64,000 nt of DNA from Octopus vulgaris (taxonomy: Eukaryota): contig OX597830.1 of assembly GCA_951406725.2 (NCBI GenBank), forward strand, positions 25,048,001 to 25,112,000, in the 5' to 3' direction. This document shows positions 31,387 through 57,743 of the stretch, one piece after another. Below the pieces are notes generated by a model that was given only the letters and a program-made list of their open reading frames with translations, was not told the origin of the DNA and did no database searches. Numbering within the stretch: the first letter of the stretch is position 1; every line of letters starts with the position of its first letter. The translations under genes were made by a program, and so were the position numbers.

Positions 31387-33787
31387 TAATTGTCTTTGTA
31401 TTCTATTATAATTCCATTTACATGTACGATACTTTACAGATATACTAAATCAACTCCAGTTACTTTACTTTAACAATTCCGCAACACATGAAAAGCAGAG
31501 CTAATTTCGGCGAGATTTGAAATGGCAACGCAATGGGACGTAACTAATTGCTGCAAGTACGATGCTTTAACGAAATGGAAGCGTTTTTTTTTTTTAACAA
31601 AAAAAAAAAAACCCGAAGCGTTTGTCTGAGCTAGCTAACGATTCTGCCAACAAGCCGCCTTGTAAGGCACCCAAATATTGTTATAAAATATCAACGGTGT
31701 CGAATGTGTCATTCCTTCAAGGCCATAAGAATATTTTAATTATTTTATTCCATATTATTCATAGCGACAATTGAATGATATTAATTTTAGTTCATATGAG
31801 TAGAAAATGTTTCTATTGGTGAGAAGTGCTGAAAATGGAAACAGGTCGCGTTTTCTCTGGTACAAAAATTTTGGAATGACGCACTTTTCATTTAGAAAGT
31901 AAATCAACAAATTAAGCAATTTCTTTTATATATACACCCATATACGGCCCACCCTCACGTATGCACAACACGCATGTACACACGAGAGAGGGGGGAGAAA
32001 TAAAGCAAGCAAGCAAGAAAGAAAGAAAGACTATGAGACATCAAGTCCCAGTGGATTTTCCTCTCAGTTCTAACTTTCAAGAATGAATCAATGTCAAAAT
32101 TGAAAGCCATTAAATAACAAATTCTCTCGTCTTTGGCAACTGATAACAAAGAACATAGAAACCTGGGCAGTCTAACCTCACATACCAGAATTTTCTTTTA
32201 ATTAGATGATGTCAGCTAATTCGGCAAATAAGCAAAAATAAAGCACGGCGTCGACTAGAAATTGAAACGTGTTGGGTATATTTAGTTTCTAAACGTCCGG
32301 AAATAACCATAGAGAGGAATTTCAGATTTACGAAAAGTCTCAATAACCGACCCAACGAATCGAAAAATAACAGACATTTCAAAAGACCAGTTAAATATGA
32401 ACACAACTACAATATCAAAGAACCAAGGACGCAAAACTCATCACATGAATTCACAGCCACAACCCATCGTCTATCCCTTTTGTTTATTCAAATTATTTTC
32501 GTGTTAATCAACATATATTCCATGTTAAACTAAGTCATTCCCTCCCTTAACCTCAAGAATGTCTTCCACTTGATTACGCCCATTAGAATTCATTATTTAG
32601 TATATTCTGAAATAGTAGTTGCTATATAGTTAAGGGAAACTGAATTGGGAATGTGCAAAGCATCATCAGTAACAATGGGGCGGTTACCTCTGTAACTTAT
32701 TCTTACACAATGGTTAGATGTTATTACGCATTTCCAACATATGACAACATTTTTAACGAATGACTATTAAAAGCAACTGATATCACCAAAATTCGCAACC
32801 CAAATAAATGCATTAGTTAAGAATGAAACAAATAAATGATATTGTAGTTGTGTTCATGTTTAATAGGTCCCGTGCAAATATCTCAAGCAAAATCTCTCTA
32901 TGTTACGTAGCTAAATGTTTTAGAAACCTATTATTAAAAGCTTGACACTGGACAATGTCCTCTGAACCCCCCCCCCCCCCATATGTATCAGGGTGAGTAA
33001 GAAGTAAGCAACGTTTTGAAACATGAAATCCATCGCAATATATTTCAACAATGCAGAAATTTTATTCACCAAAGTAAATACCATTACAATCAACACATTT
33101 TTGCCAACAAGTTACAAGTTTGTTTATTCCGGTGCTGGTGAACTCTTTGAACGCACTTTCAGCATCGGCTTGATTTTTGAACTCCATCTCTCGCAAGAAA
33201 CAATCAAGGTATTTGAAGAAGGGGTAGTCGGTAGGGAAAAAGTCTGGGAAATAAGTTGGGTGGAGAAGAACTCCGTTGCCAAGTTCCCTCAACTTCTGGA
33301 GCATCATTAGGGTAATATGTGGTCGAGCATTGTCATGATGAATGATATTGGCCCTCTTCTGTTGACCAGTCTGGGACGGAGTAGTAGCAGTTTTTCTTTC
33401 ATGTCAATATGTTTCTGCAGAAATGGTTTTTCACAAAGACGGTCTTTAATTGACCGTCATCGATGACAGATGGGCGTCCACTACGCTCACGATCTGGTTA
33501 CAGAGAAGAAGCAACGAGCAACCATTTTAGAGCTGACGCACTGGTCATTTCCTCACCGAATGTTTCGTGTGGTATCCATTTGTCGATCTTTTTTTATTTT
33601 CCAATCGCATGCAAATGGTTGCAGGCAGTTTTCTGGCAAACTTGATGTTCTTTTGCCAGTCCTCGAGTGGTTTCCGTAGATCTTTCACAAAGACGGTCTT
33701 TAATTGACCGTCATCGATGACAGATGGGCGTCCACTACGCTCACGATCTTCAAGGTTCAGGTCTCCACTACGAAATCGTTTAAACCA

Positions 33788-36775
33788 CCCTTATTTTCCT
33801 GTTAAGGTGATAGATGACTTAACAGACCAGGCCAAGGCTAGAGATGAATGTGCCTGTCAGCGTTCCTTTCACGCGGGTCTTCCATACCGCTTCTTTCGCT
33901 ATAGCAACTACAGCAAGAAAACAAGCCTTGCCTTTCTTAAAAGAGGCAGGAGGAACAATCTTTACAATCGTCTCGGAAGACAGTTGTACTCTTCACATAC
34001 GTGACAGATGTTCTACGTAAATCCACATCTCAGAGATTTTGGGGCATTGCATAATTGCGTGCAGAACGGTTTCCCTGTCCTGCTCGCATCTTGGACACGT
34101 GGGGGCACAACGGGCACCATGCTTTGCGAGTTTATCGCGAACTGGTAAGGCTCCGCCGTAACACTGCTAGACCAGTGATCCTTGGAAGTTATCCAAGGGT
34201 CCTGGCCCGAATGTCCTTCGGAACAGACTAGCTACTTGATCCTCACTGAAGCCGAGTCTTCCCCAGGACATTGTCACATTGAGCCTCTACCAACCCTCTA
34301 TAGAAAGACGAGGTGGAACCCCCGCCGCTGGTGTTGCCTGTGTGACAGAGAAGCTTGGGTGCTTCACGACATTCCGCTTGCCAAAGCACCCAACTTTGGT
34401 CTACACTTGATCCAAGGTCCTAGTTCACTCAAACTAGTAAGCACAGGAAGTAACAACCGAACGAACGGAGACCACACTTGTTCACTATCCCTGTAGAGCC
34501 ACAGGTGCCTCAGCTTCAGTGCAATATGCGCATCAACAGCCAAGGCATCTTAGGTCCACTCTTTAGCGGGTACTGTCAGCAGATAGAGCGCTTTTCAAGA
34601 GGACTCCTACCCCTCCACAAAATGCTGAGGAGCAGCCGCTCCAACATGATCAGCCACGAACGGGGGCAAGGAAAAACGGTTAGGCAATAAACACACCCGC
34701 GACCTCCGCCCTTCTTTTCAGGGACAGCCGCCGCTCAGACCAGGTCTGTGTTAAGTGGGTCACCCTACTCGTCATCTCGCTCCAATTCTTCTCTATCTGG
34801 AAGACTGGACCAAACCAAACTCCTAGCGTTTTAACCGGCCCCTCCGTCCACCGCCCTACGACGTTGATGGGAAGTATTGTTCTGCCTCTCCAGGTGCCGA
34901 GTTGCAAGCCGACTGACTTAACCCGGTTAACTTTTGCTCCTACTACCGTTTCGTAGTCCTTAATGGCTTTGCCTACCCTCTGTAGGTGTACCATCTCGGA
35001 CACGATGATGGTGACGTCATCCACGTACGCCGAAACCTTCCTACTGCAACATAGATCGCGTGGGACGCCCCTCAAACCCTCCACCTTCCGCAGTAAGGGC
35101 TCTAGAGTCAACATATACAGAAGTGGGGATAGAGGACACCCTTGACGAACAGAGCGCTTGATGTTGAACGTCTTCGAGAAGAACCCGTTCATCCGAACGA
35201 TCAAGTCAGTGTTGCTGTATAAAGCAATGATCCACCCACGGAAGACGGGGCCGAGTCCGAATGCTGCGAGGACCAGCACCAGATTTCGATGGTCAACCCT
35301 GTTAAAAGCTTTGAACTAGCCTAAATGGGCCAGCGCCCCACTCTTGCTAGGAGACCTGTTAACCCTCTTTAAGGTGTAGCGTAGAAAGCGTCGTGTATGG
35401 ATCTGCCAGGAACAGCACAAGTTTGTACCTCCCCGACGATTCCACCCAAGACATGTGCCAACCTTTTTGCTAAAACCTTGGCCAAAATCTTCAGCTCTTC
35501 GTTAAGCAGAATGATAGGCCTGAAATTATCTATAATATACCTCTTGTTCGGGTCCTTTCTAAGCAGCATCACCACTCCCCAGCTCACAGATCTGTGTATA
35601 AACCCGTTCTGCTGCCAGTTGGTGAAGACGCATGCCAAAGCTCGTAGGGGAGACCATCTAGTTCCGGCGACTTGTCCCCGCCGCAGTCCGGCAAAGACTC
35701 CTGCACCTCTACAGCTGTGATCGGCCCCTCACAGCACTCCACTTCCAGCCCAGAGTGACGCAGCATGCCAGCGAGGAAGTCCGTGAGATTCCTCCTCCAT
35801 TCCGGCCCGCCGCCCCTCCCGAAAAGCAGGATGAAATGCTCCTGAAAGACCTTACACCTCTCCTCGGGTTTGTTTACCAAGTACCCTTGATTATTCATCA
35901 AACACCTTATAGTGACATTATTGTCACGTTGGGTTTCTATCACACGGGCCCGTCCTGCGGCTTTGATTCCTTCCCGTCCCATTGCATGTTGCTTAGCCCT
36001 GACTACGCATCCTTCGTTTTTAACCACGCGGTGATGGTTAAGCACCATTCTCGCAGCTAAAACTCGAAGCGCGGAGCCTGATTCCAGTGCTTCGTATTGG
36101 ACGCTAGCTAAATCCCTTTTTATTCTATTTTTCTTAGCCACTAACTCTTTCCTGTACCTAATAGACTCGAATTTTATAGCTCTTTTGAGACATACCACTA
36201 TTTGTTGTTAATAATGGCACCACACAATGCCCTCATCACTGACTATCTAATGCACCGTAGTGCATTAGGAGTTGTTTCACTGGGAGGAGTGATCACAATT
36301 CTGCTCCTTTCCCTTTTCAACATTCCTTTATATTTTCCTAATTCATCGTTTCCGCAGTTAATTGACCTTTTTGAAATAGTGGCCGCTTCTGCAAAATTGC
36401 TTCCTTTTTTTTTCCTTGCAAGAAATCCTCTGCTGACGGTATGTTTTTTAATCCTGTGCTATTTTCTGTCTTTTTTTTTTTTGGTATTCTTCCATGAACT
36501 TGAACTTGTACCAGGTTCATTCCCAGTTTTCAACTTGATTGGAGATTCATCCATGTTTGTGCATTTTTTTCACAAAAATTTAACTATATTTTTTCCCCTT
36601 CGTACAAGGGTGAAAAAGTTAACAAGCGACTGCCTCAAGCAGACAAATTATGTTTTACACAAAAAAAACACTAAACAAAAAGTTAACGTAACAATCCAAC
36701 AGTGTAAATTCAACAAAATATCCACAAATATTACAAACCTATACCAAACATTTCGAACAACGCACAAACAAAACG
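33788..36775 (-). mobile_element. Tx1-clade LINE A: 5' UTR and ORF1 N-terminus fused by deletion to a disrupted ORF2 RT; 3' end lost
   Basis: SPELDGLPYE, FRPIILLN..KILAKVLA, RQGCPLSPLLY, SAYVDDVT and a C-terminal ETVLHAIMQC zinc finger. The ORF1 start KGSNFAEAA..MLKRERSRIVITPPSETT is homologous to ORF1 of the adjacent element. Confidence 0.9.
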
Positions 36776-36788
36776 ATGATTGTAACAA

Positions 36789-38210
36789 TTTCTTTATTAC
36801 CCACATGGGATTAAATACAGGGGGGACAAATACAAACATATAAGTGGGGACGTAAAAGAACAAACGAATGGGAAAATTGTAAATATGAATAATGAAATGG
36901 AATGAAGCCACTCGACCCTACATCCGAGTGACTTCATTTACACTTTTTTTTACAAACTTATAATTAAGATAGTTTAACTTAGGCGGCAAATTACTTGCGT
37001 CTGCTGGTACGCCTATGTCCAATGTTTCTGTCCCACAGTTTTCCATTAAATATTTTTCGGTGTTAGGGTTAGAGAGTTTTGGGCACTAGTCTATTTGTGT
37101 TATTGTCTGCGTCAGGAGGGAAAGGGGGGCGGTTGGTGACTGCAGGGGGAGGGTGTAATAGCATGGGATCGGGTGAAACTTCACATTTTTTCCTCAGACC
37201 TTTTTTTAGTTTTCCCCCTTTTAGATTGTGTCCATTCCTGCTCTTCATCCTTCCCAGGCTCCTCCTCGCTTGTAGACGACTTCGCCAGAGATGGAGGTGC
37301 GAATTTTTCTCTTGGTTCTTTTGCACTGGGTTGAAGGCAGTCTGCTTTAATGTGGTCTTTTCCCTCCACATTTAAAACACCTGGGCGTCCTGCCCTCCAC
37401 CATGACTCTCAACTTGATGTCCCCGTCGACCGTCCTTTCTAGATATTCCGGGGCGGCCTGGATCACCATTTCCAGGCCTTGCCCATGCCAATTTCTTGTC
37501 GGCACAATTTTGGTCCTCCATAATAAGTAGGATGGCGACTACCAGCCAGGCAACATCTACCTCAGGAGGGATCTCATCTACCCTTACCCCGAGAAGCACG
37601 TTTTCCAGGGTAAATGAGTAGAAGGACCACCTCCTCCGTCTTGAGGGGAGTAACGGCATGCTGCCTTGCCACAGCCTCGGACGCAAACTGCACCTCCACC
37701 GTTGCGAACTTTCTCCCTCTAGCTAGGTAATCCACCTCTTTCCAAATGGGCTGCACAGCCTTTTCCACTTCACCTCTCGTAGCCACCTTTATCCGATGCA
37801 GTCTTACGTTGTATGTTCTATACAACACCGTTCTTTTGGCTGTCCTTTCGGTAGTTTCCCTGGGAGGAGACACCTTGACATTGTTCCTCTCCCTTTTTAT
37901 CATTTCTTGGAATCTTTCAATTCCCTCCAAACACACATCTTCAGACTGCTGTCTCACCGCCTCTACGAAACTGTTCCTTTTTGCCTCTCTATTTCGTCTA
38001 GACATGCCACCAGCTCCTCCTCAAACGACAACAGGTCTGAGTAGCTCATTCTCTCTATTTTAATAGCGCTTCACCCTTCAAACAAGGGAGACAGCGTTAA
38101 CAAAACTGCTGTAAGGCAGCAAAAACAAGTGTCTTAAGACACAATTAATAACAAATACAATTTTGACTAACCTTTCGCACAAACAAAATTCACGATCAAC
38201 TCGGTCACAA
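36789..38210 (-). mobile_element. ORF1-only non-autonomous Tx1-clade element N, copy 1
   Basis: Frameshifted ORF1 (37574-38005 and downstream fragments) with CCHC knuckle CFKCGGKDHIKADC, followed directly by a 3' UTR. TSD ATGATTGT(A/G)ACAA at 36776-36788 and 38211-38223. Confidence 0.87.
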
Positions 38211-38439
38211 ATGATTGTGACAACGGGGAAAAAAATCAATGTTAATTTATTGATGCATTTGGGTAAGTCCGTATCTATATTATCAAACAATTTCAAAAAA
38301 TGTTTCAAAACAATTCAAAACTCTGCAAAAATCCGGTACAAATTCTTCGTGGTTCAAAACGTTGCTTACATTTTACACAACCTGATATATAGCCTCTATA
38401 CAGTTTCTCAACCTGCAAGACACATATAGTATCAGAAGC

Positions 38440-39000
38440 ACAACCGTCATAAGATCATGCGATTTTCCTGTGATGTGATCAACCTAGTGCGCTTTCGATC
38501 GGTGTCAGATGTGGTACCCACCGAGCAGAAACCTTCGTCATGCCAAGTTCATTGAGCAGAATATTCTCAACACTCACACAGGCTCTGCTAATAGCATTGG
38601 CTATTTGATTTATAGTCAATCACCTCTCATCCAGCACTATGTGGTGAACACGATCAACGTTTTCCTTGGTGGTAGCAGTTGCAGGACGACCAGACACTGG
38701 GTCACCTTCAAGATTCTCCCTCCACCCCACCCCAAATTAAGCTCCTCACTTTTGCACTGTTCATAAAGCTGGAAAGTCATCCTCTAATTGTAGCAACCAT
38801 GTCAACATAAATGTTCTGGGGGAAGGTTAAACCATTTTTCTGCAGGTACTTGATAACACAAAGATGCCAAATTTCGTCCATTTTTGAGTTAAGTCACTAC
38901 TGGTTGCTTTTGAAGTCTTCTTTGAGCAGTCAGATGTCAGGTTACCTGGAAAAAGACAATGCAGTTATTAAGAACTGAAATTAATGCAATATTTCGCAAC
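38440..39000 (-). mobile_element. Mariner 5' fragment from a different family
   Basis: Minus strand resembles a mariner HTH region (LEGDPVSGRPATATTKENVDRVHHIV). Confidence 0.6.
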
Positions 39001-40469
39001 TCTTAAGGCAGTGAGCTGGTAGAAATGTTAGCACGCCGGGTGAAATGCTTAACAGTACTTCGTCTGACTTTACGTTCTGAGTTCATAATGTGTGAACAGG
39101 AGTTTTATAGTATTTATGCCTTCTTGGCTCGTGAGCTGACAGTTTTATTATTCAAGGATATTTTAGTTGTAGTACTGTAGTATTGCTTCAAGTGAATGTT
39201 TAAGCTACACATCCACAACTTGCCGGAGTATTCAACTGTTTCCCCAATTAACTGTAAAATTTATCTGATGGCAATTACAGGTTTTATCTGCAATTGTGTT
39301 CTTGCCTGTCGTAGTGTTGTTATTGTTTCAGTGCAGTGGTGCTGGTACTTCAAAGAATTGCTATTGCAGTTTTGTTGTTGTTAGTTTACAACACTGGTTT
39401 CAAAAGAAGTTAATGAGCTAATTATATTTGATTTCAGTTGAAACTTTAAGGTGACTTCATTACTGAACTTATTATAACCATTCTGCTTTTCTCAACATAA
39501 CCAATGAACCACATAAAATTAGCGACTCATTTCATCTCGAGGATATACTGCCGCATTTTCCCTGACCACCACATTTCAATAGCCTTTCATTACACAAGCA
39601 TAAAACCTGACTTATTTTACAGGAGGTAAATGCAAAGTGGTGACGTCATTCATATCTGAAATCATTAGAGATCCCAGATAATGATTCTGAAACTCAAAAA
39701 TGTCAGCCTCTCCCTTCTTCACAAAAAACTTGTCCTTCCCACTTTTTGTTTTTATTAAGACAGAGTTTGAATCTATATAATATCTTATTTCAGTGCCATG
39801 GTGATGGACGAATTTAAAAACCATCTTAATCTTATTAAACATGGTAATTTGTTCACCTCTTTATAATTTCCACAACCCCACTGGTGGTCTGTATCCTGTC
39901 CCCGAGAGAAGCAATTACCTAAGGCGCGAAAATCAAAACCAGAGCGCAAATTCAGCTTTGGGAAAATTTAACTTCACATGCCGCTTGTCCACATTTAAAT
40001 CTTGCAAAATTTAATAGTATATGTAACGCCATAGGATATCAGTAAAATTAAACTCATATGAAGTAAAAAAAAAAAATATATAGTATGCTAAGAGTAGTAG
40101 CTAAAAAAGACTAGAGTTTAAGTGATTCATAAATAGTAAACACTATTACAATCAAAATACTACTTGAGACAGATGATATATTATCAGACTTGTACCAACA
40201 TGATGCTGGTTTTGTACATGATTTTTTTTTAATATTTTATTACTTGATGTTTCTATTTTTTTTTTTTTGTTTCTATTTTTGCAATTCCAAATCTTTGCTC
40301 CCATTACAGAATCCACTCCAACATATGTGTACAGAAATTTTATATCAGTATAAATAACTGAATGCATCGTTATTTTTAACATGTGTGTATAATGCCAACA
40401 TATAAATACATGTATAATTATAATACATGTGTATACTTATAAATTTTATAAACATGTCTTAACATGTCG

Positions 40470-40502
40470 CATATATATGTGTGTGTGTACACACACACAT
40501 AC

Positions 40503-40543
<41 letters not shown>

Positions 40544-40626
40544 CACACATATATATCCATATATATATATATATATACATACACACATATATATCCATAT
40601 ATATATATATACATACACACTCACAT

Positions 40627-40674
<48 letters not shown>

Positions 40675-40820
40675 GTGTGTGTGTATTGCACAGTTATACT
40701 GCGTTCGAAATTTACTTTCTCGTCTGTGTGTGTGTATATACACATACATATGTCTATACATAGATACCTACATACATACACACATTGCAATTTGTGTATT
40801 TAGCAATATATATATATATG
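40470..40820. repeat. Compound (TA)n/(CA)n microsatellite
   Basis: Directly visible in the sequence. Confidence 0.95.
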
Positions 40821-41539
40821 CCCATTTTTTTTTTTTCAAGCAAACATAGTCGCACACGAGTACATATATTAAATGCAACAGAATCTCCAGAATTAATCGT
40901 GAGAACTAGTTAGGCTGCAACAAGTGTTATAGAGAACTAGAAAACAGTAGCAAGCTGGGGAAGTTGTTTAGAGGGATAAGAGACTTATTTCTCTCTGCTT
41001 TCAATAACAAAACACGCATATTCCTATTTCCCTGTTTGCGTACACGAGCACCCTTTCAAGGCTTATCTACTGTTACAATATCTCTTTAGACATGCAAACA
41101 CTAAAAACACAACTGCTGCGAATTTATTGCTGACGCATCGTTCTCTCTCTCACTCATAATTCATATATAACTAGTTGCTCTTCCTGTTATATATTTATGG
41201 CATTTTTAATAACATTCTTCAGATAAATATCTACAGTTTCTCGAATTTCTTCAAGTGACCGCGACCGAGATGCGTTTCACGAAGTCGCGCCAGAAATCTC
41301 CCTTTCTTTTAAAGCTTTGGCAGGACCAGAGTTTGAAGCTATGTGTCTCTGCTGTCTCTCAATAACACTGATATATGTGAGTGCCCTCGTCCCCTATTTT
41401 GGTTCTTATTTCACTCTGGTGGTCTCTCATAGCCATTCGATGTATAAAAAAATTCCTATTATATTTTTATAATTAAATATTATTAGGAATTGTATTAGAA
41501 AAATTCTTAGATTATTTTGTATATTGCAGGGGAAAAAAA

Positions 41540-41882
41540 GGGTAAAGACCCCATTCGGTCATGAATGACCATGGGATTGCACCTAGAAAGTTACCTTCCG
41601 AGGCACAAGTCCGAGCAAGGTTGTTTATGGAAGACCTGCAGTCGCCCATGCATACAAGCCTCCCCTCTCCACACCACCGATATTATCCAAAGGGAAGGCA
41701 AAGGCCGATACAATTTGGCACCAGTGACATTGCAAATCATTTCTATAACTGAGTGAACTGGAGCAACATGAAAATAAATTGTTTTGCTTAAGAACATAAC
41801 ACACAGCCTGGTCTGGGAATCGAACTGACTACCTCATGGTTGTGAGCCCGACGCTCTAACCACTGAGTCATGCGCCTTCACA
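41540..41882 (-). mobile_element. SINE with a family A head and a different 3' tail, nested in a hAT MITE remnant
   Basis: 41745-41882 matches the family A head, while 41540-41745 is unrelated to the family A body. The hAT end GGTTGAGAACCACTG lies at 41966-41980. Confidence 0.7.
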
Positions 41883-42902
41883 CTGTAGAAGTATAAACCA
41901 ATTAGTGCGCATAAATTTTAACAACAGAACCTTATGTGGACCCCACCAATGATCATATGGACCCTGGTTGAGAACCACTGTTCCACATGACAGTACTCAG
42001 CAGCATAGAAATGATAGGAATGGTCTGTAAATAATAAAACGAATTCATGAACTTACTATCAATTTGAACAATTTATTGTATTTATGTGCAGAAGTGTCGA
42101 TGTTATATAGAAACAAATCGAAGAGAGCAATATCTTTTTTTTAGCAAACTATATTCATTTGAGTTTGAATTGGAAGGTTCTTAATATGTAACGATTTATA
42201 TGTAGTAAAAAAATGGAAAGAAAATATTATTTGTTGAAATGACCCATTATTTTCATCGTTATAATGTAAGATACAACTTCGAGCTGTTCTTGTACACAGA
42301 TTATTTTTAGTTCTGTTATCCTTTCCGTAGTTAGAGTAAAAAAATTACCTCTCTGTGTTGACAAGTAACGAGGAGGGAAGCTGTGTTGTCGCACAGTGAT
42401 AAGCCATACGCGAAATAAGAAACGGACAGATGTGCTCTTTTAGTGAGGGGTCAAGTGAAAGAAGTAGACCCGAATTTGGATTCCGTATTTATATTTTCTC
42501 CTAATTAAATTTGGTCAGGCTAAACAAAAGATTTTCCGTCTCCTAAATGCACATGCAAACAAGCACACGCAAGCTCTGAAATAACAACTGCAAGTCAGCG
42601 AAGTGTTTGATATTAATCCTAATCAAAACTGCACAACATGCAATGCTACTATGCCTATTGATGGTTTATAGCCGATAGAATTACAAAGTTTATTTGGCTT
42701 TACTAAAAAAAATATTTTTCCAAGGTTATTCCGAAATATGTAGCCACGTGCAAAAATAACTATTACAGCACAAATACAATACAGACGTAAATGAAGTGCC
42801 AAACATGAACATAACTACAGTGTTCCTTATCTACATTGTGTATAAGTTTGCAGACGTGTATATAAGCTGGTACGTATGTGAAAACTCCTACGTAGATGTG
42901 GT

Positions 42903-42910
42903 TATATATA

Positions 42911-42946
<36 letters not shown>

Positions 42947-43254
42947 TGTATGTATGTATGTATGTATGCATGCATGCATGTATGTATGTATGTATGTATG
43001 TATGTATGTATGTATGTATGTGTGTGTGTGTGTGTATGTATGTATGTGTGGTGTGTGTGTGTGTGTGTGTGTGTGTGCCTGTGAATGAGGTATTTGTGCA
43101 GGTTTACAGCTAATGACCAAACCATTCGACAATATCAGATTAAGAACATTCCGTAATTTATATTGTGTTTACGTATGCAGATGTGCATATAGGCGTGTAT
43201 GTATGTGCAAACTCCTACGCACATATGTTTGAGCGTGGCTATATAGATAGATAG

Positions 43255-43343
<89 letters not shown>

Positions 43344-43384
43344 CAGAGATAGATAGATAGATAAATAGATAAATAAGTAGATAA

Positions 43385-43457
<73 letters not shown>

Positions 43458-43498
43458 CAGACAGATAGACAGATAGATGTGTGTGTGTGTGTGTGTGT
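42903..43498. repeat. (TATG)n, (TG)n and (GATA)n microsatellites
   Basis: Directly visible in the sequence. Confidence 0.95.
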
Positions 43499-45002: not shown

Positions 45003-45069
<67 letters not shown>

Positions 45070-45290: not shown

Positions 45291-45544
45291 ATCTTTTTGC
45301 ATGGCCACCGAGACTGGTGGATGGATAGTGAGAAAGAAACTACAACTCATGGATTATCCATAAAGACCTAATCTGCAGCATAGTAGACTTCGAGAATGGT
45401 ACCCAAAGTCAGGTGACAGATTTGAAATAAAGTTTGCGATATATAAGGCATCATGTAGAGAATATTAAGCGGGTGGAACGGGCTATATGCGACAACAAAC
45501 AGGACTTAATAGAATAAGGTCGGGTTGATATAGATATACTAATT

Positions 45545-45710
45545 TCAAATTTTGGTACAAGACCACCAATTTCGGGGGAGGGAATAAGTCGATTACATCG
45601 ACCCAAGTACTCAACTGGTACTTATTTTATCGACCCCGAAAGGATGAAAAGCAAAGTGAACCTCGGCGGAATTTGAACTCAGAACATGATGGGCGAAATG
45701 CCGCTACGCT
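45545..45710 (-). mobile_element. SINE family C fragment
   Basis: CORE-type body and the alternative tail. Confidence 0.75.
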
Positions 45711-46365
45711 CAAGGCCTTAAGGATTGATATAGATAAACTTACTAAAAGCATATTTCGAATGCAGGTAGCCTTGATGTTCCGTGCTGCCATCTTACACTT
45801 GATCCCAGAGCTAGCCATGACTATTTCATCTTTGCTATAGACAAGATCCAATTTCAGTTAATTTCTGCTGTTATTTCTAGCAACTAGAGTAACCGGTATC
45901 CCTTCTTGACTCGTTTAGCTGTTCACTTATTCCATTGAAATAAAATTAATAACAAATAATCAGTCTACCTGCCTTTTAGATTTTATTAAAAATGTACGCA
46001 GCACAATCTATATTTCCTTCCTACAAATTTAAGAGCTGTCAAGTAAATATCTAAACAGCGTTTCTTCTAACACACACTGTGTTGATACTTATATGCAGTA
46101 AGAGTATATTTTGACTTGAATTGATATTATGATCTTACTGAAATATAAACTGAATTGTAACATGTTGTTGATACTCATAGGCATGACCTATTAAAAAGCT
46201 ATTAAATGGCAAGATGTATAGATGCAACCACTCATGTGTGTATATATATACTTACTAGGCAGCTATTATAACATTTATTTTTAACAAAATAAGTAATCCG
46301 ACACACAGTTTCCCTCATTATTAAATATCACAAACATTAGGAAATGTTTAACTAAATATTTCTGT

Positions 46366-48254
46366 CGTGATAGAAGGAAGGTTTTTATGATACTTTTGGA
46401 GTATCTTCTTCCATTATAATTATTCTGTTGATTCAAGGAGCTGAGAATACGAAGAACGAAGTTCTCAGGCGGAGTAAATTCGATAACCGTTTATTCACTG
46501 GTGCTTCCTACAAGGAGTTTGCTTTCAGTAACCATCTTCACAGCAGAGCGTAGTTAGCCTTCTCTCCCATACACGTGAGGTTCAATAACCTCTGGAGATA
46601 ATGCATGTGGTATCACAGCGGGACAAAAGTCCGCTGTGAGCTCCTGGCTTCGAAGTCTTGCTCGGCGTCAACGTGAGAAGAATGAGAGGGAAGATGTCTT
46701 TTCCTTGAATAATGGTTGCAGGCGAGATCTCGCTATTTCAAAATGGCACTGGCTTCTTTGTGCCTTGGTACAGGGGTTCCGCCTGAGAACGCCAATGCGA
46801 AAATAGAGAATAACTGGAGCAAGCACAAGAAAAGAGCAAAGATGGTAACCGATCGCAAACAACAAGATATGGTACAAAAATGTGACAAGTCAAAAAGAAA
46901 AATAATTGCAAGAAATATAAATCGGCATGCACAAAATTTGACAAAATGTTCAATGGCAGAGTATTGGAATTGTTAGAAAGCAACTGTCTGTCACAGGAAA
47001 CACAAAAGAGATTGTCAGATATAAATAGTTTTAAGCTTTTTAGTCCAATGCACAGTACGACTTGTCCTGGTGACATAAGGTTTGTTAGTGTTAGGTTGTG
47101 GTGACGAAGGTGGAGGTGTAGGTGATAGTGTGGTCAAAGGTGTATGTGCGGGTGGATGTGGAGGTGGTTGTAAAGGATCGAAAGTGGGCGTGGTCGAAAT
47201 GTCATCGAAAGATGTGGAAACCTCAAAATATCCCTTTTTAAGTCTGTCAACTAACACGGTATCTGCCCGACCATTGATGTCGAGACTAAAAGTTTTGGGT
47301 GTACGCGATAGCACACGAAACGGTCCTTTATAGAGAGAAACGAGCAGTCCTCTGACAGAATCATCCCGAACAAAAACATGAATCCACTTGTCAATGTCCG
47401 GTGGAACGTGAGAAGGAATAGATTGGTCACGCGGATACATTGGTGAAAGACTCGAGAAATACGAGGGAGGTCTGGTGACATACGACGTTGGATCAGGATG
47501 TGATGAATTGGCTGGTGCTAACATTGTACCAGGAAGTGCCAAGGTGGTACCGTAAAGGAGTTAGGCAGAGGAGAAATCTACGTCTGTCTTAACGGCGGTG
47601 CGACAACCAAGAAGAAAGATAGGCCGGGATTCTGTCCAAGACTGCGGATCAGGAGTGGCGCGTAGAGCGGTCTTCAGTTGCCTGTAAAAACGTTCGACCA
47701 TCCCGTTGGAGGTTGGATGGTAGCTGGTCGTACGAATGTGATGAACACCTAGGATTCTTGATAATTCACGAAATAAGGAAGCTTCGAACTGGCGTCCACG
47801 GTCAGTAGTTATTTTAGCTGGAACACCAAAACGAGCAATCCTACCATTTTATAATGGAAGGAAAGTTTTTATGATACTTTTTGGGTTATCTTCTATTATA
47901 ATTCTGTTGATTCAAAGAGCTGGAAATACGAAGAATGAAGTTCTCAGGCGGAGTAAATTCAATAACCGTTTATTCACTGGTGCTTCCTACAAGGAGTTTG
48001 CTTTCAGTAACCATCTTCACAGCAGTGCGTAGTTAGCCTTCTCTCCCATACACGTGAGGTTCAATAACCTCTGGAGACAATGCATGTGGTATCACAGCGG
48101 GACAAAAGTCCGCTGTGAGCTCCTGGCTTCGAAGTTTTGCTCGACGTCAGCGTGAGAAGAATGAGAGGGAAGATGTTGTCTTTTCCTTAAATAATGGTTG
48201 CAGGCGAGATCTCGCTGTTTCAAAATGGCACTAGCTTCTTTGTGTCTCGCTACA
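46366..48254 (-). mobile_element. Internally deleted Gypsy LTR retrotransposon with two LTRs of about 405 bp and a 4-bp TSD
   Basis: LTRs at 46366-46772 and 47850-48254, with CTGT TSD at 46362-46365 and 48255-48258. Integrase [31 protein letters not shown] and a YKGPF (GPY/F) motif at 47015-47840. Confidence 0.92.
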
Positions 48255-48610
48255 CTGTCTTAAATACGAATTAAAGCAATATGAATTTAGCCGATGCTCG
48301 GGAAACATGGAGAGAGATGTGTGGCGTCTTTGCTGTACACCTATGGCCTTCCTAGGTAATAGATTTCGATTTGAGCTGCTAACAGAACAGTTTACGATTG
48401 GAGCTATAAATATTGTCAACAATTCAATCCTGATGAAGCAGATCTATGATCAAAGGTGTATCATTCACGAATAACCGGTAATCCTAAAACGACGTTACCC
48501 ATGTCTTTTTATGATTAGCAGGTTATTAGGTTGCTATTTCCAGCAGGTCGCCTGACCATGTGGACACTCTTTCGGATCGAGCAAAAGATTTACTATTGAC
48601 TATATATATA

Positions 48611-49300
48611 CCGTAAATCCTCGAGTATAGTCCGCTCTTGAGTATAATACGCAGGGGATTTTTAAGGGGCTGTACCTCTGAAAAACCTAAACCTTGTGTA
48701 TAATACGCACCCCTTCTCTAACTTGAGTCAAAGAGGTCTATATAACGTCCTTGGTTTGTAAAAATGTATACAGTAACGTCCTTTATTATTACCTTCTTTA
48801 TCTTTGGCATCTGTTTAATTTCCTCTTTATTTCTTCTCCATAACCTGACATTGTTTTCGTCAACATCAAATTTTCTTCCGGCGGTCCTATTACCATGCTC
48901 TTCATCATATGATATAACTTCAAGTTTAAACATAGCTGAATAAGATCTACGAGGTATTTTATGGGCATGTAATGTATAAAATGTTTTACTGGAGATTAAT
49001 GTACAGGTTTAAGTCCCGCTTATAAAAAACCCTAGTAAAGACCCACAGTAGTTCAAACATTTAATACTGGTATTTAATTAAGTATCTATTGTTTGCCACG
49101 GTAATGATGCAAACTGCCAATACAAACAGCAGGATGAACTATTTAGCGCTATTTAGCACAATTCGTGCATAATTAAGCCAGCAGCACCTGGTCGAACAAA
49201 CACTTCCACGCATGCGTAATACAATAATGGTAATGTTCTTAACTGTTATATGGGAATGTAAATATGTTTGCAAATTGTTTTTGTTACATGTTATTCTGTG
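48611..49300 (-). mobile_element. pogo (POGK-like) transposon deletion derivative
   Basis: TA|CCGTAAATCCTCGAGTATA terminus. Brinker-like DNA-binding domain FKLEVISY..HGNRTAGRKFDVDENNVRLWR at 48718-48933. The right boundary is uncertain. Confidence 0.75.
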
Positions 49301-49910
49301 TTCTGAATACTTTTATTTTAATAAATGTTGCTTACTGCTAGTTATGGATGATTCTTTTAGGACTTCATTACTTTCAGGCTTAGCTTAAGGTATTTTCGCG
49401 CCCGACATCACAAAATGTGTCTGAATAAACATTGCCGGACAGCAAATAGAGACTCGGACATTGCTTAGAAAATATTTTTCATTTTAAACCTTTTTTAACA
49501 CTTGTTACCATTTCAAATATGCTCGAGGCATATTTGATCCCGTAAGAAGCCCATTCACCATATTTTGTCATGGGGAAAATTTCTCGGTGTCGACATATAG
49601 GTATAAACACCAAGCCAGTTCAAGCGCTCTCCCAGAGTCGAATTGTTGATGTAACTATGATGTTCGTTAAGCCTATCAGCTTGTTCATTAAATATCTGTT
49701 GCCATCTATACTATAATAAAGTTGCTCATTAATTATGAGTATGTAACTATTACTACGCTGTCTAGAAAATTCTTAAGAATTCTAATCTTAATATATTTTT
49801 TATTAAAATGTATTCTTTAGGATCTTTTTATTATTGAAAGTTTCAACTACAGAAAACTAATTTTAATTCACTGCAGGATAGAGTATTTTTTATGGCTGCG
49901 AGGTAGTTAG

Positions 49911-49979
<69 letters not shown>

Positions 49980-50429
49980 ATACAATTTATGAAGCTTTCT
50001 ACAAATATATCAGTAAAAATATTTCCCTAAATTATAATTTTAATCCAACGTCAGCCAAATTATGTTGATTCCAGTATCTTTTTCATATCTGTCAGGTGTT
50101 GTTGACGAAATAGAAAGCTGAAGAAGAAAAGTGGTTTTAATTACTAACGTCAAATGTACCAAATATAAATTTGTCGCATTTATAAGAGACTGTTACAAAA
50201 CATAAGAAGTACAGCGTGAAATCTGTCATATATTCCTAATAGTTAGCTCCTTTGCTGAGATGACTGGTATGGTAATGTTACTGTAGCTCATATGATGAAC
50301 GAGAATATTAAAAAATGTCATTTCCCATCTCCGAACATCTGAGATTGTGTGTTTATATAGGTTATTAATTGTAAAGTGTATAAATATGAGTATCAAAAGA
50401 AAACTAATGCAAAGCAAGTAAGTTATACA

Positions 50430-50592
50430 ATCAGAGGTTAAGAAGCTTGCTTCTCAGCCGCATAGTTCTGAGTTCAGTTCCAATGCGTGGAACCATGGGC
50501 AAGTATCTTCTACAATAGCATCGGGCCGACCAAAGCCTTGTGACCGGATTTGGTACATGGAAAGTGAAAGAAGCCCGTCGTGTGTGTGTGTG

Positions 50593-50633
<41 letters not shown>

Positions 50634-50838
50634 CTTCATGTCTGCGTTTGTTCCCCCTACCACCGCTTGACAACCGGTGTTAGTGTGTTTACGTGCCTTA
50701 ACTTAGCGGTTTAGTAAAAGATGCTGATGGAATAAGTACCAGATTTTAAAATGAGTGCTGAGGTCGATTCATTCGATTTAAAACGCGGTGCTCCAGCATG
50801 GCTGCAATCTAATGACTGAAACATGTAAAAGATAAAAG
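50430..50838 (+). mobile_element. SINE family B, near full length
   Basis: Head, body, (TG)n, 3' half and GTAAAAGATAAAAGA tail. Confidence 0.82.
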
Positions 50839-50977
50839 ATGTTTCCAAAACATATTAGGTGTGCGTTCCAGTTGCCTGTCATGCCAAGTCACGAAATCTT
50901 CTGATAGGTACGCATACGATAATCGAAGTATTTTTATGCGGCTGATATAATACCTGGTTTCTTCATAAATTCTAATA

Positions 50978-51841
50978 CAGTCAACTCTCGCTACTATGCC
51001 ACCCTGCGGGACTGAGCCAAAGTGGCATAGTACCGAGAGTGGCATAGTACCGAGGGTCTGTTATCTAAACACTACATAACCAAAAATTTACTGAACATAC
51101 GAATAAAAATTCATAGGGTAGAAAGTAAGGCCAATAAGAAGTTCAATGCAATGGTAAAAAGAAGACATCCAAGTTTATTAAGTTCAGATTGCTTTTAGTT
51201 AATCCCGAAGCTCTCAAAAATTGTCGGCTGACGCATCTTCTTTCGGCGGATTTCATTAATTTCGTTGTCTAGCCTATCGCACGCCTGCATGACGCTGGGT
51301 TTTCCGCTGCTCTGCTGCTGCATAAACTTTCGGATAGTGCTCCATGCTCTCTGGGCATCTGCAAACGAAACGTATTCCTCTTCCACAATTACATCGTCGT
51401 CTTCACTTTCCACCGGCTCTTCGTTATGCATTACCTCCTTTGCTATTTCTTCAAGAGTGAAACATGTCGGACAATACAAGGGGCGGTAACTTGTATAAGA
51501 TATTACTAATGATACGAGGGGCCCGACAATAACGTTTTTCGCAGCATCGATAATCTCCTTCTTTTCCTTTAGCGTAAACTCAGTCCGCTTGCGTTTCTGA
51601 GCTGACATTGTGTGCTACTTTCTGAACTTTTCCACAAGATTACAAATACGAAATGTACAAAATGTAGGAGTACAAAATTTCGAAAAGTTGCGTGCGCTTC
51701 AGTTTACAAGTGCCATAGTAGCGAGAGTTGAGGGTGGCATAGTAAAAATTTTTTGTTTATTATTTGGTCGGGACCGCGCAAAACTGGCACAGTAGCGAGA
51801 GTGGCATAGTAGCGAGGTGGCATAGTAGCGAGAGTTGACTG
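50978..51841 (-). mobile_element. Tigger/pogo non-autonomous element with a fused N/C-terminal transposase ORF
   Basis: TIR of about 25 bp CAGTCAACTCTCGCTACTATGCCAC and subterminal GTGGCATAGTAGCGAG repeats. ORF 51195-51608 runs KRKRTEFTLKEKKEII ... RQPTIFESF with no DDE core. Confidence 0.9.
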
Positions 51842-54563
51842 CATTGTCTTTGAGTGTTTCCTAAATTTATTTATTTTATATTTATTCATTGAGCGAATTG
51901 AGACCCTTAAGACGAAGAAAGGGGATACAAAGTGAAATTAGACGTAACATATCAGAAAAATTACGCAAATCGGGAATCAAAAGTGCAAAATATTATTTAA
52001 CGACTAACAGAAACCTGCTAAAGGGCGGTCTTTCTGCTAGTGAATATAATTTTAAATCTGTAACGTAACTTTAAACCTAGTGTTGATGATTGTATCAGTT
52101 ATAAATCATTCGCCTTTGCAACTTACTGCAGACCACACGGACAACAGGCCATTAACGACACTTTTGAAAATCAGACGAATAAATAAATTTACGAAGATAA
52201 TTCTTTCAAAGATAACATAAGGAACTAAGAATGAAATTTGAAAAATCCTTGATAAAATAAGCAAACTTTAGAATAGTCTTGTTTTAATATAGCACTTTTG
52301 AAAGTAAGGCTGTTCCCTATATTTGTGTGTGTGTGTGTGTGCATGAGAGAGAGAGGGTGTGTGTCTGTGTGCGCGGTGCAAGTGCGTGTGTGGTGGAGGC
52401 AGACCTTTGTCGTTCAATGATGATTCAATCGTTTGATCAACTGAATTAATTGCTCCTAAATTAGCGTGACACAATGTGTGATGAGGTTGTACTTTTTATA
52501 ATCCAGCCGACGGGCTTCCATCTAGTTTCCGTTTACCTGCGTCACACTGATTCTCCCTGAGCATTATATTAAGGGTACACTTGCCTGTGGAAATTCGGAG
52601 CCACTTACACGTTAATTTAGGGGCAATTAATTCAGTTGACCGAAATTGTAATGGCTCTGTATAAGAAGTTGTCTGATGAAATGTGTCTATTCATGTATTT
52701 TTTGGGGATGGGTGGGTTCATTTCCGTTAATTGCCGTCCACGTCTTTTACTGTTATTTTAATCTCATGTGTGTGTGTGCATGTATGTATGTATTTATGTA
52801 GATAGGCAGGTAGGTAGGTAAGTGTGCGTTTGTATGTATGTATGTATGTATAAGGCGAATTGGTAGAGACGTTAGTTTTGCTTTTAGTCTTGTGAGGTCG
52901 ATAAAGTATCAGTCAAATATTCGGGAATATTTCGACGAGAGTTTTAAACGTTGGTGAGAAAACCGAAAAACTGACGCTTTCTAATAAAAACAGAAAAACA
53001 TTAGTATTTATTCTACAATCAATTACACAATTACAATCAATGACAAGCTACTGAACTGAGGCAATGTGATTTCCCCAGAATCACAACGAACATCTTCAAT
53101 GAATAAAATATTAGATTTCTTATTTGACCATTAAACCTCTATACACCGAACTATAACAATAACAAAATAAATATCTATAATGAGATACAATTATTAATGT
53201 AACCAACGTCTATAAAAATGTTTCTTTTGTAACAATCCGAGAATCACAAAGCCAACGGTTTAGGTTTCTTGAATTTTTAGGAGCTACAAAATCAAATCAG
53301 TGGTGATGGCGGGGCCCTGTGAAGTGCTGCCTCAAATCTTTAAGCAATTATCTGCTAGAGCTTAATGGCTATAAAAACGTATACAATATGTATCAAGTAC
53401 ATTTACAAAATTAAATAAATAGCATAAAATGTTGTTATTTTCTAGTCTCGCAAACTAACAAGGTAACAGGAAAATAAATACGATATATGTTTATTTCCTT
53501 ATAAGGAAGTCCATTATTATAAGATATACGATATAGAAAACTTTACAAATAATTTTTAAGGTGAATTTAAGAGAAACTTATGAGAAATTAAGAAAGCTAG
53601 ACAATAAATTTAAGAGATAGCCATTAAGACAAATGGCTTAGACATATAGCGCTATTATACAGTTATGTCCCATTTTCACCTTCAGAAACTTTTATATCCA
53701 TTAATCTTGCAAAACCATTTGGGATTCAAATTTAAATATTATTTAGTTCCATTGGATTCCTAAGATGCTGAAAAATTACATTCAGCAGTATGTTGTGGGT
53801 GAATGAAAATTTTGTTATACTTGGGCGGTAGTTTAGTTGGAATTCGATCATGTTTTTTTACATGCCAAACCCACCTCCGAATAACTATGCAGTTGAAACG
53901 CCTAAATTAGAGACAGGGTGTTGGTGATCACTCATACATACATATAGTGGGTGTCAAATAATCCGGTTGTGTGTGTGTGAGAGAGAGAGAGAGGGGGAGA
54001 GAGAGAGAGAAAACAAAAGCTATCATGATGTTATGGAAGTGTCCGTAGCTAGACGCAGAACAAATACCTCAAGAGACTTCATTCGCAAACAACGGATGTT
54101 TTGGTTTTCTCTGCGCGACACACACACACACACACACACACATGCGTGCACAAACACACATGCGCGCGCGCACCCACACCCACACAACCCGATTTACAGA
54201 GTCATTAGAATGTCGGATAGAATGCTTTGCAGCATTTGTTCCGGCTCTTTGCTCTCTGAGTAAATATCTCACCACGATCAGTGTTGCTTTTCATTCTATC
54301 GGTGTCGATTACAAAATTACCAGAGGCTAAAACAGTGGGTGGGTGGGTTGGTGGGATTGTTGTAGCGACGGACGAGACGACTCGCAGAATTGTTTCTTCT
54401 GTTTACAGCTGTGAGCTCAAATTCTGTCTTGTTGCTGCGGGAAACGGAGAATTCCGGTTCCAGCTAATGGTACAAATTTCCAATATGAGAGGAAGCGAAG
54501 AATCAACAGAGCAGCATCCATGTAAATGCACGCCGTCTAGAACGGGATAAACGTTAGGATAGA

Positions 54564-54597
<34 letters not shown>

Positions 54598-55230
54598 TGT
54601 GTGTGTGTGTGCGTGCGCATGCGTACTTCCCCACCCTCTGTGAACCATATAGATGAGTTTTCTTGCTGTATTGTTAATTTCCAAAATGAATTTTCGTTCC
54701 CTTCGTCCATTTCTTCGAAGCAGTGGTCAATTAAAAGTTGCGTTGTTTACAAAGTACAACAAAGTACTTACTACTATCTGGTTTGCTGAAGATAGCTGAC
54801 TTAAGAAAGTCGTGAGTTTTGTTAACAGAATCAAAATCTATCGTAGTGCTAAAAAGAAATTTTCACGCGAGGCTGTTAGATGTCCCAGGCTTACGTTGTT
54901 TTAAATATTTTACCCACCGCCAGAATGTCACTGCTTAAAAAAATTCTAACTTATGGTTAAACTATGTGATGAGAATTATATGACAGTGTGTGGTATAATG
55001 TAGAGTGTTCCAAGTATATATATATAAATCGCAGATACACTTACACAAACATGCACGCGCATGCGTGTATGCATATATATATATGTATGTATGTATATAG
55101 GCAACATTATAAAATAACTCTACAAACATCAATGAACCCCGAGTCCCTAGAAGCACTTATCGGACCTGTTACACCACACTTTCTCTCCTTTAATTTTCTG
55201 TGTCTTTGTACTCTGTTAAAGTTTGCTCTG

Positions 55231-55286
<56 letters not shown>

Positions 55287-55290
<4 letters not shown>

Positions 55291-57743
55291 GTTGAGTAAA
55301 AAGTAAGCAACGTTTTGAAACATGAAGTTCATCACAATGCAGAAATATTATTCATCAAAGTAAGTACCATTACAATCAACACAGTTTTGCCAACGAGTTA
55401 CAGGTTTGTTTATTCCGGTAACATAAAAATCTGGAGTTCAGGAGTTGATGAATTCTTTGAACGCACTTTCAGCATCGGTTTGATTTTTTAACTCCTTCTC
55501 TCGCAGGAAACCATCTAGGCGCTTGAAAAACCACCATACAGTCCCAATAAACTTCTATTTGAAGAGCTCGGGTTTAGGGAAGCTTTTCGGTGCTTCATTT
55601 TGGCCCAACCACTACGAAGAACGTTTCTTTTTTATTATTATTGTACAGAATCCACTTTTCACCGCAAGTTAAAACGCGGTCGAGAAATGGATCGGTCTGT
55701 TTACAGAGAAGAAGCAACGAACAAATTTCATATCTGCGCATTTTCTGATTTTCATTCAAATCGTGTAGTATCCATTTGTCGATCTTTTTTGATTTTCCAA
55801 TCGCATGCAAATGGTTGCAGGCAGTTTTCTGGCAAACTTGAAGTTCTTTTGCCAGTTCTCGAGTGGTTTACGTGAATCTTTCTCAAAGACGGTCTTTAAC
55901 TGACCGTCATCGATGACAGATGGGCGCCAACTACGCTCACGATCTTCAAGGCTCAGGTCTCCACTGCGAAATCGTTTAAACCATTTTCGAGCTGACCACT
56001 CACTGGTCATTTTCTTACCAAACGTTTCCTTCATATCGATGGCGCTTTCGGCTGCTTTACGTCCTTTTTTGAGGTTGAATAGCAAAAATTGCTCCATTTC
56101 AGATTATTGTAACAACGATTTCTTTATTACCCACAAGGGGCTAAATACAGGGGGACAAATACAAACAGATAAGTGGGGACGAAAAAAGACAAACGAATGG
56201 AAAAATTGTAAATATGAATAATGAAATGGAATGAAGCCACTCGACCCTACATCCGAGTGACTTCATTTACACATTTTTTTTTACAAACTTATAATTAAGA
56301 TACTTTAACTTAGGTGGTAAATTACTTGCGTCTGCTGGTACGCCTATGTCAAATGTTTCTGTCCCACATTTTTCCATTAAACCAAAACACTTTTTCGGTG
56401 TTAGGGTTAGGGCGTTTTGGGCAACTGTCTGTGTTATTGTCTGTGTCAAGAGGGACAGGAGGACGGTTGGTGACTGCAGAGGGAGGGTGTAACAGCATGG
56501 AATCGGGTGAGACTTCACACTTTTTTCCTCAGACCGTTTTTTAGTTTTCTTCATTTTAGATTGTGTCCATTCCAGCTCTTCTTCCTTCCCAGGCTCCTCC
56601 TCGCTTCTAGATGACTTCGCCAGAGGCGGGGGGTGCGAATTTTTCTTTTGGTTCTTTTGCGCTGTGTAGAGGGCATTCTGCTTTAATGTGGCCCCACATT
56701 TAATATACCTGGGCGTCCTGCACTCCCCATGACTCTCAACTTAATGACCCCGTCGACTGTCCTTTCTAGATCTTCCAGAGCGGCCTGGCTCACCGTTTCC
56801 AGGCCCTGCCCATAACAATTTCTTGTCGGCACTCTTTTTTACCTGGAGGACCACAATTCTGGTCCTCCATATTAAGTAGGATGGCGGCTACCAGCCAGGC
56901 AATATCCACCTCAGGAGGGATCTCATCTACCCTTACCCCGAGAAGCACGTTTTCCAGGGTAAATGAGTAGAAGGACCACCTCCTCCGTCTTGAGGGGAGT
57001 AGCGGCATGCTGCCTGGCCACAGCCTCGGACGCAAACTGCACCTCCACCGTTGCGAACTTTCTCCCTCTAGCTAGGTAATCCACCTCTTTCCAAATGGGC
57101 TGCACAGCCCTTTCCACTTCACATCTCGTAGCCACCTCTATCCGATGCAGTCGTACGTTGTATGTTCTATACAACACCATTCTTTTGGCTGTCCTTTCGG
57201 TAGTTTCCCTTGGAGGAGATACCTTGACAGTGTTCCTCTCCCTTTTTATCATTTCTTGGAATCTTTCAATTCCCTCCAAACACACATCTTCAGACTGCCG
57301 TCTCACCGCCTCTGCGAAACTGTTCTTTTTTGCCTCTCTATTTCGTCTAGACATGCCACCAGCTCCTCCTCAAACGACAACAGGTCTGAGTAGCTCATTC
57401 CCTCCATTTCTTTACAGCGGTTCCTCTTTCAAACAAGGGGGACAGCGTTAACAAATCTGCCGTAAGGCAGCAAAAACAAGTGTCTCAAGACACAACAATT
57501 AATAACAAATACAACTTTGACTAACCTTTCGCACAAACAAAATTCACGATCAACTCGGTCACAAATGATTGTAACAACGGTGAAAAAAATATCAATGTTA
57601 ATTTATTGATGCATTTGGGTAAGTCCGTATCTATATTATCAGACAATTTCAAAAAAAATGTTTTAAAACAATTCAAAACTCTGCAAAAATCCGGTACAAA
57701 TTCGTCATGGTTCAAAACATTGCTTACTTTTTCCTCAACCTGA
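55287..57743 (-). mobile_element. Mariner copy 2 (defective) carrying Tx1-clade element N
   Basis: TA-flanked TIRs as in copy 1. Transposase HTH (KWFKRFRSGDLSLEDRERS) at 55756-56097 and FLDRVLTCGEKWILY at 55595-55810. Confidence 0.92.
56118..57564 (-). mobile_element. ORF1-only non-autonomous Tx1-clade element N, copy 2
   Basis: Colinear with 36789-38210. TSD AT(T/G)ATTGTAACAACG at 56103-56117 and 57565-57579. Confidence 0.88.

Follow-up and report, generated by a model that had tools for sequence, protein, structure and literature searches.

Crocodilian Tx1-Mar elements, which are long interspersed nuclear elements (LINEs), and their SINEU passengers have been described as preferring the transposon Mariner-N4_AMi (Kojima 2015, PMC4494074), and Tx1 families that target a mariner are thus already in print. 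For the LINE Tx1L, only part of the specificity has been attributed to the endonuclease hairpin loop (PMC1950540). In this study, we report the analysis of a 64,000-nucleotide stretch of Octopus vulgaris DNA (assembly GCA_951406725.2, contig OX597830.1, positions 25,048,001 to 25,112,000 of the forward strand; hereafter the window), in which two mariner copies carry LINE-derived elements at the same site, just upstream of the transposase start codon. Parts were numbered by window positions, and the genome searched comprised 2.8 Gb in 227 contigs. We consider it probable that an autonomous LINE of the L1/Tx1 type (element B) and elements encoding only the first open reading frame, ORF1 (A1, A2 and X), reached this one mariner site by many separate insertions primed by the B endonuclease, and that the pair in the window is one insertion that was later duplicated, probably by a local hop.

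One target site in the mariner family

The target, (C)GTTGTTACAATCAT, is present as a single copy in empty mariners, 5 nt upstream of the ATG. Mariner start regions were fetched for 30 copies (the best 40 of 979 candidates were listed); 26 were empty with one target copy and four were filled, one of these being the window's own, and small deletions within the target were seen in four of the 26. An exact-pattern search of the genome returned 126 empty sites and 12 filled 3' junctions, and reversed controls returned none. These numbers suggest about 1000 mariners in the genome, roughly 5-10% of them occupied, allowing for decay. That the motif might be part of the LINE, one of the two objections named with the original prediction of a targeted mariner site, was ruled out, since empty mariners carry one copy of it. 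Within the window, the 13-mer with up to two mismatches was found nine times against 4.9 expected, marginally above chance, and the case therefore rests on position and on the genome-wide data.

Filled mariners hold a 14-18-bp duplication of the target and empty ones a single copy. A duplication of 13-15 bp had been noted; it is present, but is probably longer by CT(G). At the 3' junction the tail ends in AATAAAGAAAT and is followed by CG or its decay products and then by TTGTT, and the 5' junctions come with a variable CT(G)(A).

Flanks were tabulated on the best-scoring matches, not on a full census. Among 30 A-type 5' ends (two of them the window's own and two from one array), 28 lay at the target, 26 after the mariner 5' arm and target and two after another LINE tail and target; one was in an array with the target mostly lost and one had another flank. 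The corresponding number for B was 15 of 18 (nine after the arm, six after a tail and target), with two ends in damaged arrays and one unrelated. A 3' ends were on the target in 14 of 30 cases, with one more fused to the transposase, and the proportion depended on match quality, being 13 of the best 15 versus one of the weakest 15 (73-81% identity), which include other ORF1-only elements. B 3' ends were on the full target in 15 of 30. After removal of duplicates there were 34 arm-to-LINE 5' junctions (plus four that were truncated or of a new type) and 44 tail-to-target junctions. Every target copy with a recognisable LINE end was in the sense orientation, and none was opposite. The preference for the target is very strong, not absolute. 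Unrelated flanks in most copies, the other objection named, were not what was seen, as close copies are mostly flanked by the mariner target; of the proposed mariner-specific lineage, the repeated targeting stands and the exclusive specificity does not.

At least four ORF1 lineages (A1, A2, X and B) occupy the site in an ORF1 tree for which 52 of 59 rows were kept, seven of fewer than 90 residues, including the window's B, having been dropped; its deep nodes are weak. A fifth type of 5' end was found at the site in loci L215 and L270. Inserts truncated at the 5' end lie between two target copies in L226 (about 50 bp), L093 (about 145 bp) and L244 (about 320 bp), and tandem arrays of two or three elements occur at the target in different combinations. 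The mariner family is star-like, most copies being 5-9% from the column majority outside CpG, and less diverged copies exist at 2.6-3.5%. When arms were compared (69 of 93 copies, with at least 250 shared columns), filled pairs shared 0.36 derived changes per 100 columns versus 0.33 for empty-filled and empty-empty pairs (permutation p=0.10). Since truncated inserts are found at the same site and filled mariners form no clade, most insertions at the mariner site are most likely independent. The elements thereby behave as target-specific Tx1 families do, entering one sequence repeatedly and independently and leaving a fixed duplication, although their preference is strong and not absolute.

It could be argued that master mariners received one or a few LINE insertions and then multiplied by transposition as composites, without real targeting. 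Such hitchhiking, for which the window pair, itself a duplicated composite, and the similar age of passengers and mariner arms could be cited, is very improbable, because at least four lineages, varied truncation points and varied tandem orders meet at one site, filled arms are no closer to one another than to empty arms, and the 3' flanks have only a common short repeat in common. As a general cause of filled mariners it is largely refuted by the truncated inserts and by the lack of a filled clade. In the arrays L061, L064, L113, L116 and L120, a B-type element lies downstream of an ORF1-only element, nearest the ATG, and this order may show which target copy is reused.

The window composites, their passengers and their origin

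Both window mariners begin with TCAGG and end with CCTGA, with terminal inverted repeats (TIRs) of about 40 bp and a TA on both sides, and every part of both composites lies on the minus strand. The transposase start matches Pfam HTH_48 (Mos1-type, E=2.4e-11 in copy 2), and decayed transposase copies contain TCDEKW, HHDNARPH and YSPDLSPTDY, which we take to be motifs of the mariner DD34D type. Pfam searches with the second transposase piece and with three short window fragments gave no match. By its TA duplication, short TIRs, Mos1-type helix-turn-helix and DD34D transposase motifs, the host element can be classed as a mariner of the Tc1/mariner group.

Mariner copy 1 (32988-38385) consists, in order, of the 5' arm (38226-38385, TIR at about 38346-38385), the upstream target copy (38211-38225, one mismatch; 13-mer core 38211-38223), element A1 (36789-38210, with an ORF1 remnant at about 37359-38005 and a tail ending GTGGGTAATAAAGAAA), a further target copy (36776-36788), element B (33788-36775) and a deletion junction into the rearranged transposase remnant with the 3' TIR (32988-33787). 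This last part contains a perfect 67-bp duplication (33429-33495 = 33683-33749), which is much younger than the split between the two window copies. Mariner copy 2 (55287-57743) consists of the 5' arm (57580-57743), the upstream target copy (57565-57579), element A1 (56118-57564, ORF1 remnant at about 56761-57354), the downstream target copy (56103-56117, one mismatch, 5 nt before the ATG), CTGAA, and the transposase remnant with the 3' TIR (55287-56097), in which the ATG at 56097 is followed by a small deletion and there is an internal deletion of about 260 bp. Rechecking of the ends, TIRs and TA flanks upheld the mariner coordinates first proposed, as well as the duplication of the target at the same mariner position in both copies and the start of a second family, B, directly after the downstream target copy in copy 1. 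A different mariner-like transposase fragment (LEGDPVSGRP...VSARWVPHL) directly adjoins copy 1 at about 38400-38950 on the minus strand.

Element A is 1.42-1.45 kb long in the window. When it was compared with an intact LINE of this genome, ORF1 was the only part to match; there was no match to ORF2, and element A has no reverse transcriptase (RT). Over 217 residues, the ORF1 of another A1 copy shows 44% identity to that of an intact LINE, which bears a zf-CCHC. Besides the window pair, A1 elements of about 1.43-1.6 kb between target copies, with no ORF2 match, were found in L117, L118, L176, L082, L086 and L092, and because size and content recur, A is an ORF1-only family and not a damaged LINE. 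With ORF1 and a tail, no ORF2 and many dispersed copies, A1, A2 and X would qualify as elements like HAL1. The ORF1s of A1 and A2 are separated by a dS of about 1.5 with a dN/dS of 0.14; this ratio and a longer shared tail may mean that selection went on maintaining ORF1 once ORF2 was gone, but could also reflect selection in autonomous ancestors.

Element B in the window carries an RVT_1 domain (34683-35315, E=5.7e-17) within an ORF2 remnant (33786-36245). A fuller copy, L143, is about 5.07 kb long and aligns over 1076 of 1138 ORF2 residues; relative to it, the window's B has lost 1.88 kb by an internal deletion at about 36250 (the rest of ORF1 and the endonuclease) and the last 310 bp, and copy 1 is also without B's downstream target copy and about 130 bp of the transposase. 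The expectation of a Tx1-type element in both copies was thus borne out for B, with its RT, in copy 1; the element that the two copies share is A, an ORF1 remnant with a 3' tail, which lacks ORF2 and is non-autonomous. Other B copies keep endonuclease motifs, and in the intact relatives Y1 and Y2 the ORF2 contains an apurinic/apyrimidinic endonuclease (APE), an RT and a C-terminal zinc finger. Judged by these domains, B is an autonomous LINE family of the L1/Tx1 type. The best PDB match of an intact B relative was human L1 ORF2p (E=3.5e-71), and the nearest named ORF2 relative was a protein from Argonauta hians (66%). A zf-CCHC was found in the ORF1 of Y1, and an aligned CFKC-GH-C motif in A1 copies. 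A CCHC knuckle in ORF1 is typical of the Tx1 clade, to which B likely belongs on its sequence; no named Tx1 reference was present among the 120 listed homologues or the 10 clusters. The sampled copies are decayed, at about 7-15% from the family majority.

The two window copies proved not to be independent insertions and do not by themselves demonstrate targeting. The two A elements have 48 derived changes in common, of 91 and 101. Private to them are 27 substitutions, more than in any other of the 98 pairs (median 0.16 per 100), as well as a 7-bp deletion. For the mariner arms, 11 derived changes are common to both copies over 625 columns (rank 4 of 2099 pairs, Poisson P=1.4e-5). Homology does not extend past the TIR ends, and the sequences flanking the two mariners are unrelated. 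On these sequence comparisons, the window copies are one insertion that was duplicated about halfway through its decay. Segmental duplication was rejected as its origin, the 3-kb flanks sharing only common short repeats. A local cut-and-paste hop of the mariner is the likely route and the simplest reading, because an empty pair with the same signature and less diverged mariners exist. The empty pair, L039 (C4:58025824) and L059 (C4:58302283), lies 276 kb apart in inverted orientation, has 20 shared derived changes, is 6.6% apart with unrelated flanks, and likely records a local hop made by a copy that was already aged. Two further pairs of neighbouring mariners, on C2 and C3, were considered as hops but proved to be identical recent duplications.

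The proposal that the passenger could be moved inside the mariner by cut-and-paste draws support from the window pair, for which there is one competing explanation. It leaves targeting as described and concerns the last step only: ectopic gene conversion or break repair may have copied the 5' arm and A into a neighbouring mariner. We regard this as possible but the less likely course. The window copies are 17 kb apart in the same orientation, and shared changes become sparser along them, with 7 in the 128 columns of the 5' arm, 7 in 338 columns of the ORF and 1 in 220 columns of the 3' arm; however, this drop is not clearly beyond chance (about four expected in 220), homology ends exactly at the TIRs, and mariners only 2.6-3.5% from the majority suggest that transposase was still available at the split. 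B is 8.7% diverged from its family, equal to A; it may have reached copy 1 after the two copies separated, or copy 2 may have lost it.

Mechanism and choice of target

By the known mechanism of target-primed reverse transcription, the APE endonuclease of ORF2p would nick TTTTCAC^(C)GTTGTT on the bottom strand, and from there the shared tail, which has GTGGG(C/T)AATAAAGAAAT at its end, would be copied. Second-strand cleavage would follow 14-18 bp downstream, just before the ATG, where it would be marked by the variable CT(G)(A). ORF1-only RNAs with a similar tail would be mobilised in trans by B, the helper setting their target. The target is restored by each insertion, and elements are found stacked head to tail. 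A multicopy transposon may offer a harmless landing pad, and insertion would part the transposase from its 5' arm while the TIRs are kept, so that the composite could still be moved in trans.

In L232, an off-target B copy, the duplication spans 18 bp and is similar to the target, which favours reading of the sequence by the endonuclease. Alternatively, the elements may seek transcription start sites, the mariner start being reached via a promoter complex or open chromatin and the co-oriented passenger borrowing the promoter. All recognisable junctions are in the sense orientation, the presumed nick lies about 30 bp behind AATAAATT, which is the densest cluster of TATA-like 8-mers in the mariner arm, TATAAAA precedes the duplication of a sister ORF1-only copy (L107/L214) by about 27 bp, and the endonuclease loops of B and of its relative Y2 are identical. 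We nevertheless hold this to be improbable, since the TATA match is weak (two mismatches, with similar matches at -90), L232 resembles the target in sequence with no TATA at -30 (one case), and an asymmetric endonuclease site would also fix the orientation. RNA contigs from two runs, which cannot show starts, were uninformative, except for joins that skip the passenger, as empty mariners would give.

Three young LINE families related to B were found at loci L125-L141 (C3, C4, C6, C27, C29, C30, C50 and others), with open ORF2 frames of 1132-1145 aa that are 65-70% identical to B's RT. Y1 lies in (TC)n. Y3 occupies (ATT)n, where it forms head-to-tail arrays with a period of about 5.87 kb, and Y2 forms arrays with a period of about 5.28 kb. 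Close relatives of B with other targets show RT identities of 65-77% and nearly the same hairpin loop. The B loop has 9 residues, NSDGSSRS, is identical to that of Y2 and close to those of Y1 and Y3, and aligns to the L1 loop. A perfect TTGTTACAATCAT is present in a different repeat in which Y2 arrays are also found (L135:2826 and L136:3737, oriented), about 90-100 bp before the junction and not at it.

Several observations count against the preferred account of insertion by the B endonuclease at a chosen sequence. B has the loop of Y2, whose copies are not at this target, and the loop therefore does not explain the specificity; likewise, the tail is common to families with other targets and so does not explain the pairing of B with its passengers. 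None of the 150 scored RT matches was an intact B. A-like tails were located elsewhere in 15 of 30 cases, and 15 of 30 B-like 3' ends were off the full target (one with the 3' end lost, three with CGTTG only, four copies of one duplicated locus, four followed by TGAT, and three others). The mariner 5' arm is missing upstream of many 3' junctions that lie on the target, which the preferred account leaves unexplained, and to these observations is added the weak sharing in the 3' arm of the window pair.

With regard to the missing arms, shortened passengers lie on the target in L190-L194, L267-L269 and L272-L274 with no mariner 5' arm within several kb upstream, perhaps because the target site was deleted on insertion or because the arm was deleted later. 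That the LINE carried the mariner ORF along by 3' transduction found no support, as the 22 downstream flanks have nothing in common but a common repeat, at offsets that differ. The B-like tails followed by TGAT (L235, L252, L255 and L256) have otherwise unrelated flanks and may form a subfamily directed to a different target.

In the ORF1 tree (where deep nodes are weak), ORF1-only relatives whose flanks differ are placed among A1 or next to it, a placement suggesting that it is the helper that determines the target. A broader scenario can be offered only tentatively, as we think it rather unlikely: an old ORF1-only lineage would survive by swapping helpers, and hence targets, while its mariner branch would hit the transposase start site, take the promoter, silence the copy and ride by cut-and-paste, the choice of target being set by something other than the endonuclease hairpin. 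If true, this would be a three-tier parasite, an ORF1-only passenger on a LINE on a DNA transposon.

Additionally, three ORF1-only relatives of A (L099, L103 and L105) end at another site common to all three, after which comes a CTGATGA...GAAAC-like stretch; this site bears a loose resemblance to the mariner target and also lies ahead of AGAAATG. The last 40-60 bp of the LINE tail, ending GTAGTAAAGAAATAGG, recur in a very abundant short repeat that has extreme depth in RNA contigs; this repeat was found in the window at 56118-56175, with matches near 18512, 28909, 60194 and 60354, and may be a short interspersed nuclear element (SINE) moved by these LINEs.

Comparison with known systems

No account of this mariner site was found in the literature searched, subscription journals and Repbase lying outside the search, and the octopus repeat paper included in it (PMC13282606) mentions Tx1 and mariner once each, in a table; PMC7265360 offered no parallel of use. 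Systems of this kind are already known, all mariner-targeting copies found here are decayed, and nothing implies a function for the host. New here are the use of one site only, on the sense strand and adjoining the ATG of a coding mariner, the ORF1-only passengers of several deep lineages, the invertebrate host and the duplication of a composite as a unit. The sister families at other repeats, with nearly the same loop, form a natural series for what sets target choice in APE-type LINEs, and ORF1-only passengers with relatives at different targets would allow a test of whether helper or RNA decides the site.

HAL1 (half-L1) is likewise a non-autonomous LINE derivative encoding only ORF1 and is derived from mammalian L1 (PMC5753468), whereas the octopus ORF1-only elements carry a CCHC-type ORF1 and are target-selective. 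Xenopus Tx1L in Tx1D is also an APE-type LINE at a fixed sequence in a DNA transposon (PMC1950540, PMC4494074); Tx1D, however, is a non-autonomous piggyBac, unlike the mariner host here, and Tx1L has an 11-residue hairpin loop and a proven sequence-specific endonuclease, whereas the loop of B aligns to the 9-residue L1 loop and its nicking is predicted.

The crocodilian Tx1-Mar elements are the closest parallel. They too are L1/Tx1-type LINEs (PMC4494074) that prefer a mariner family, with non-autonomous passengers at the same target, tandem insertions around one duplicated target, and host and passenger of similar age, and truncated copies were likewise used to exclude hitchhiking. By the same account, their target comprises two regions of Mariner-N4_AMi (one at about 240, in opposite orientation, and one at about 830, in the same orientation) with the duplication AGGTTCCCATCAGCAT, and their SINEU passengers are SINEs headed by small nuclear RNA (PMC4494074), whereas the octopus passengers are ORF1-only elements and the target sequence differs from the published one. 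By analogy, the octopus elements would work like Tx1-Mar, and we do not file them as members of it. They represent a second, probably independent case of LINEs with a mariner as landing site, this time in an invertebrate, and apparently a sharper one than the crocodilian case, with one site, in sense orientation only, 5 nt before the ATG of a transposase-coding mariner.

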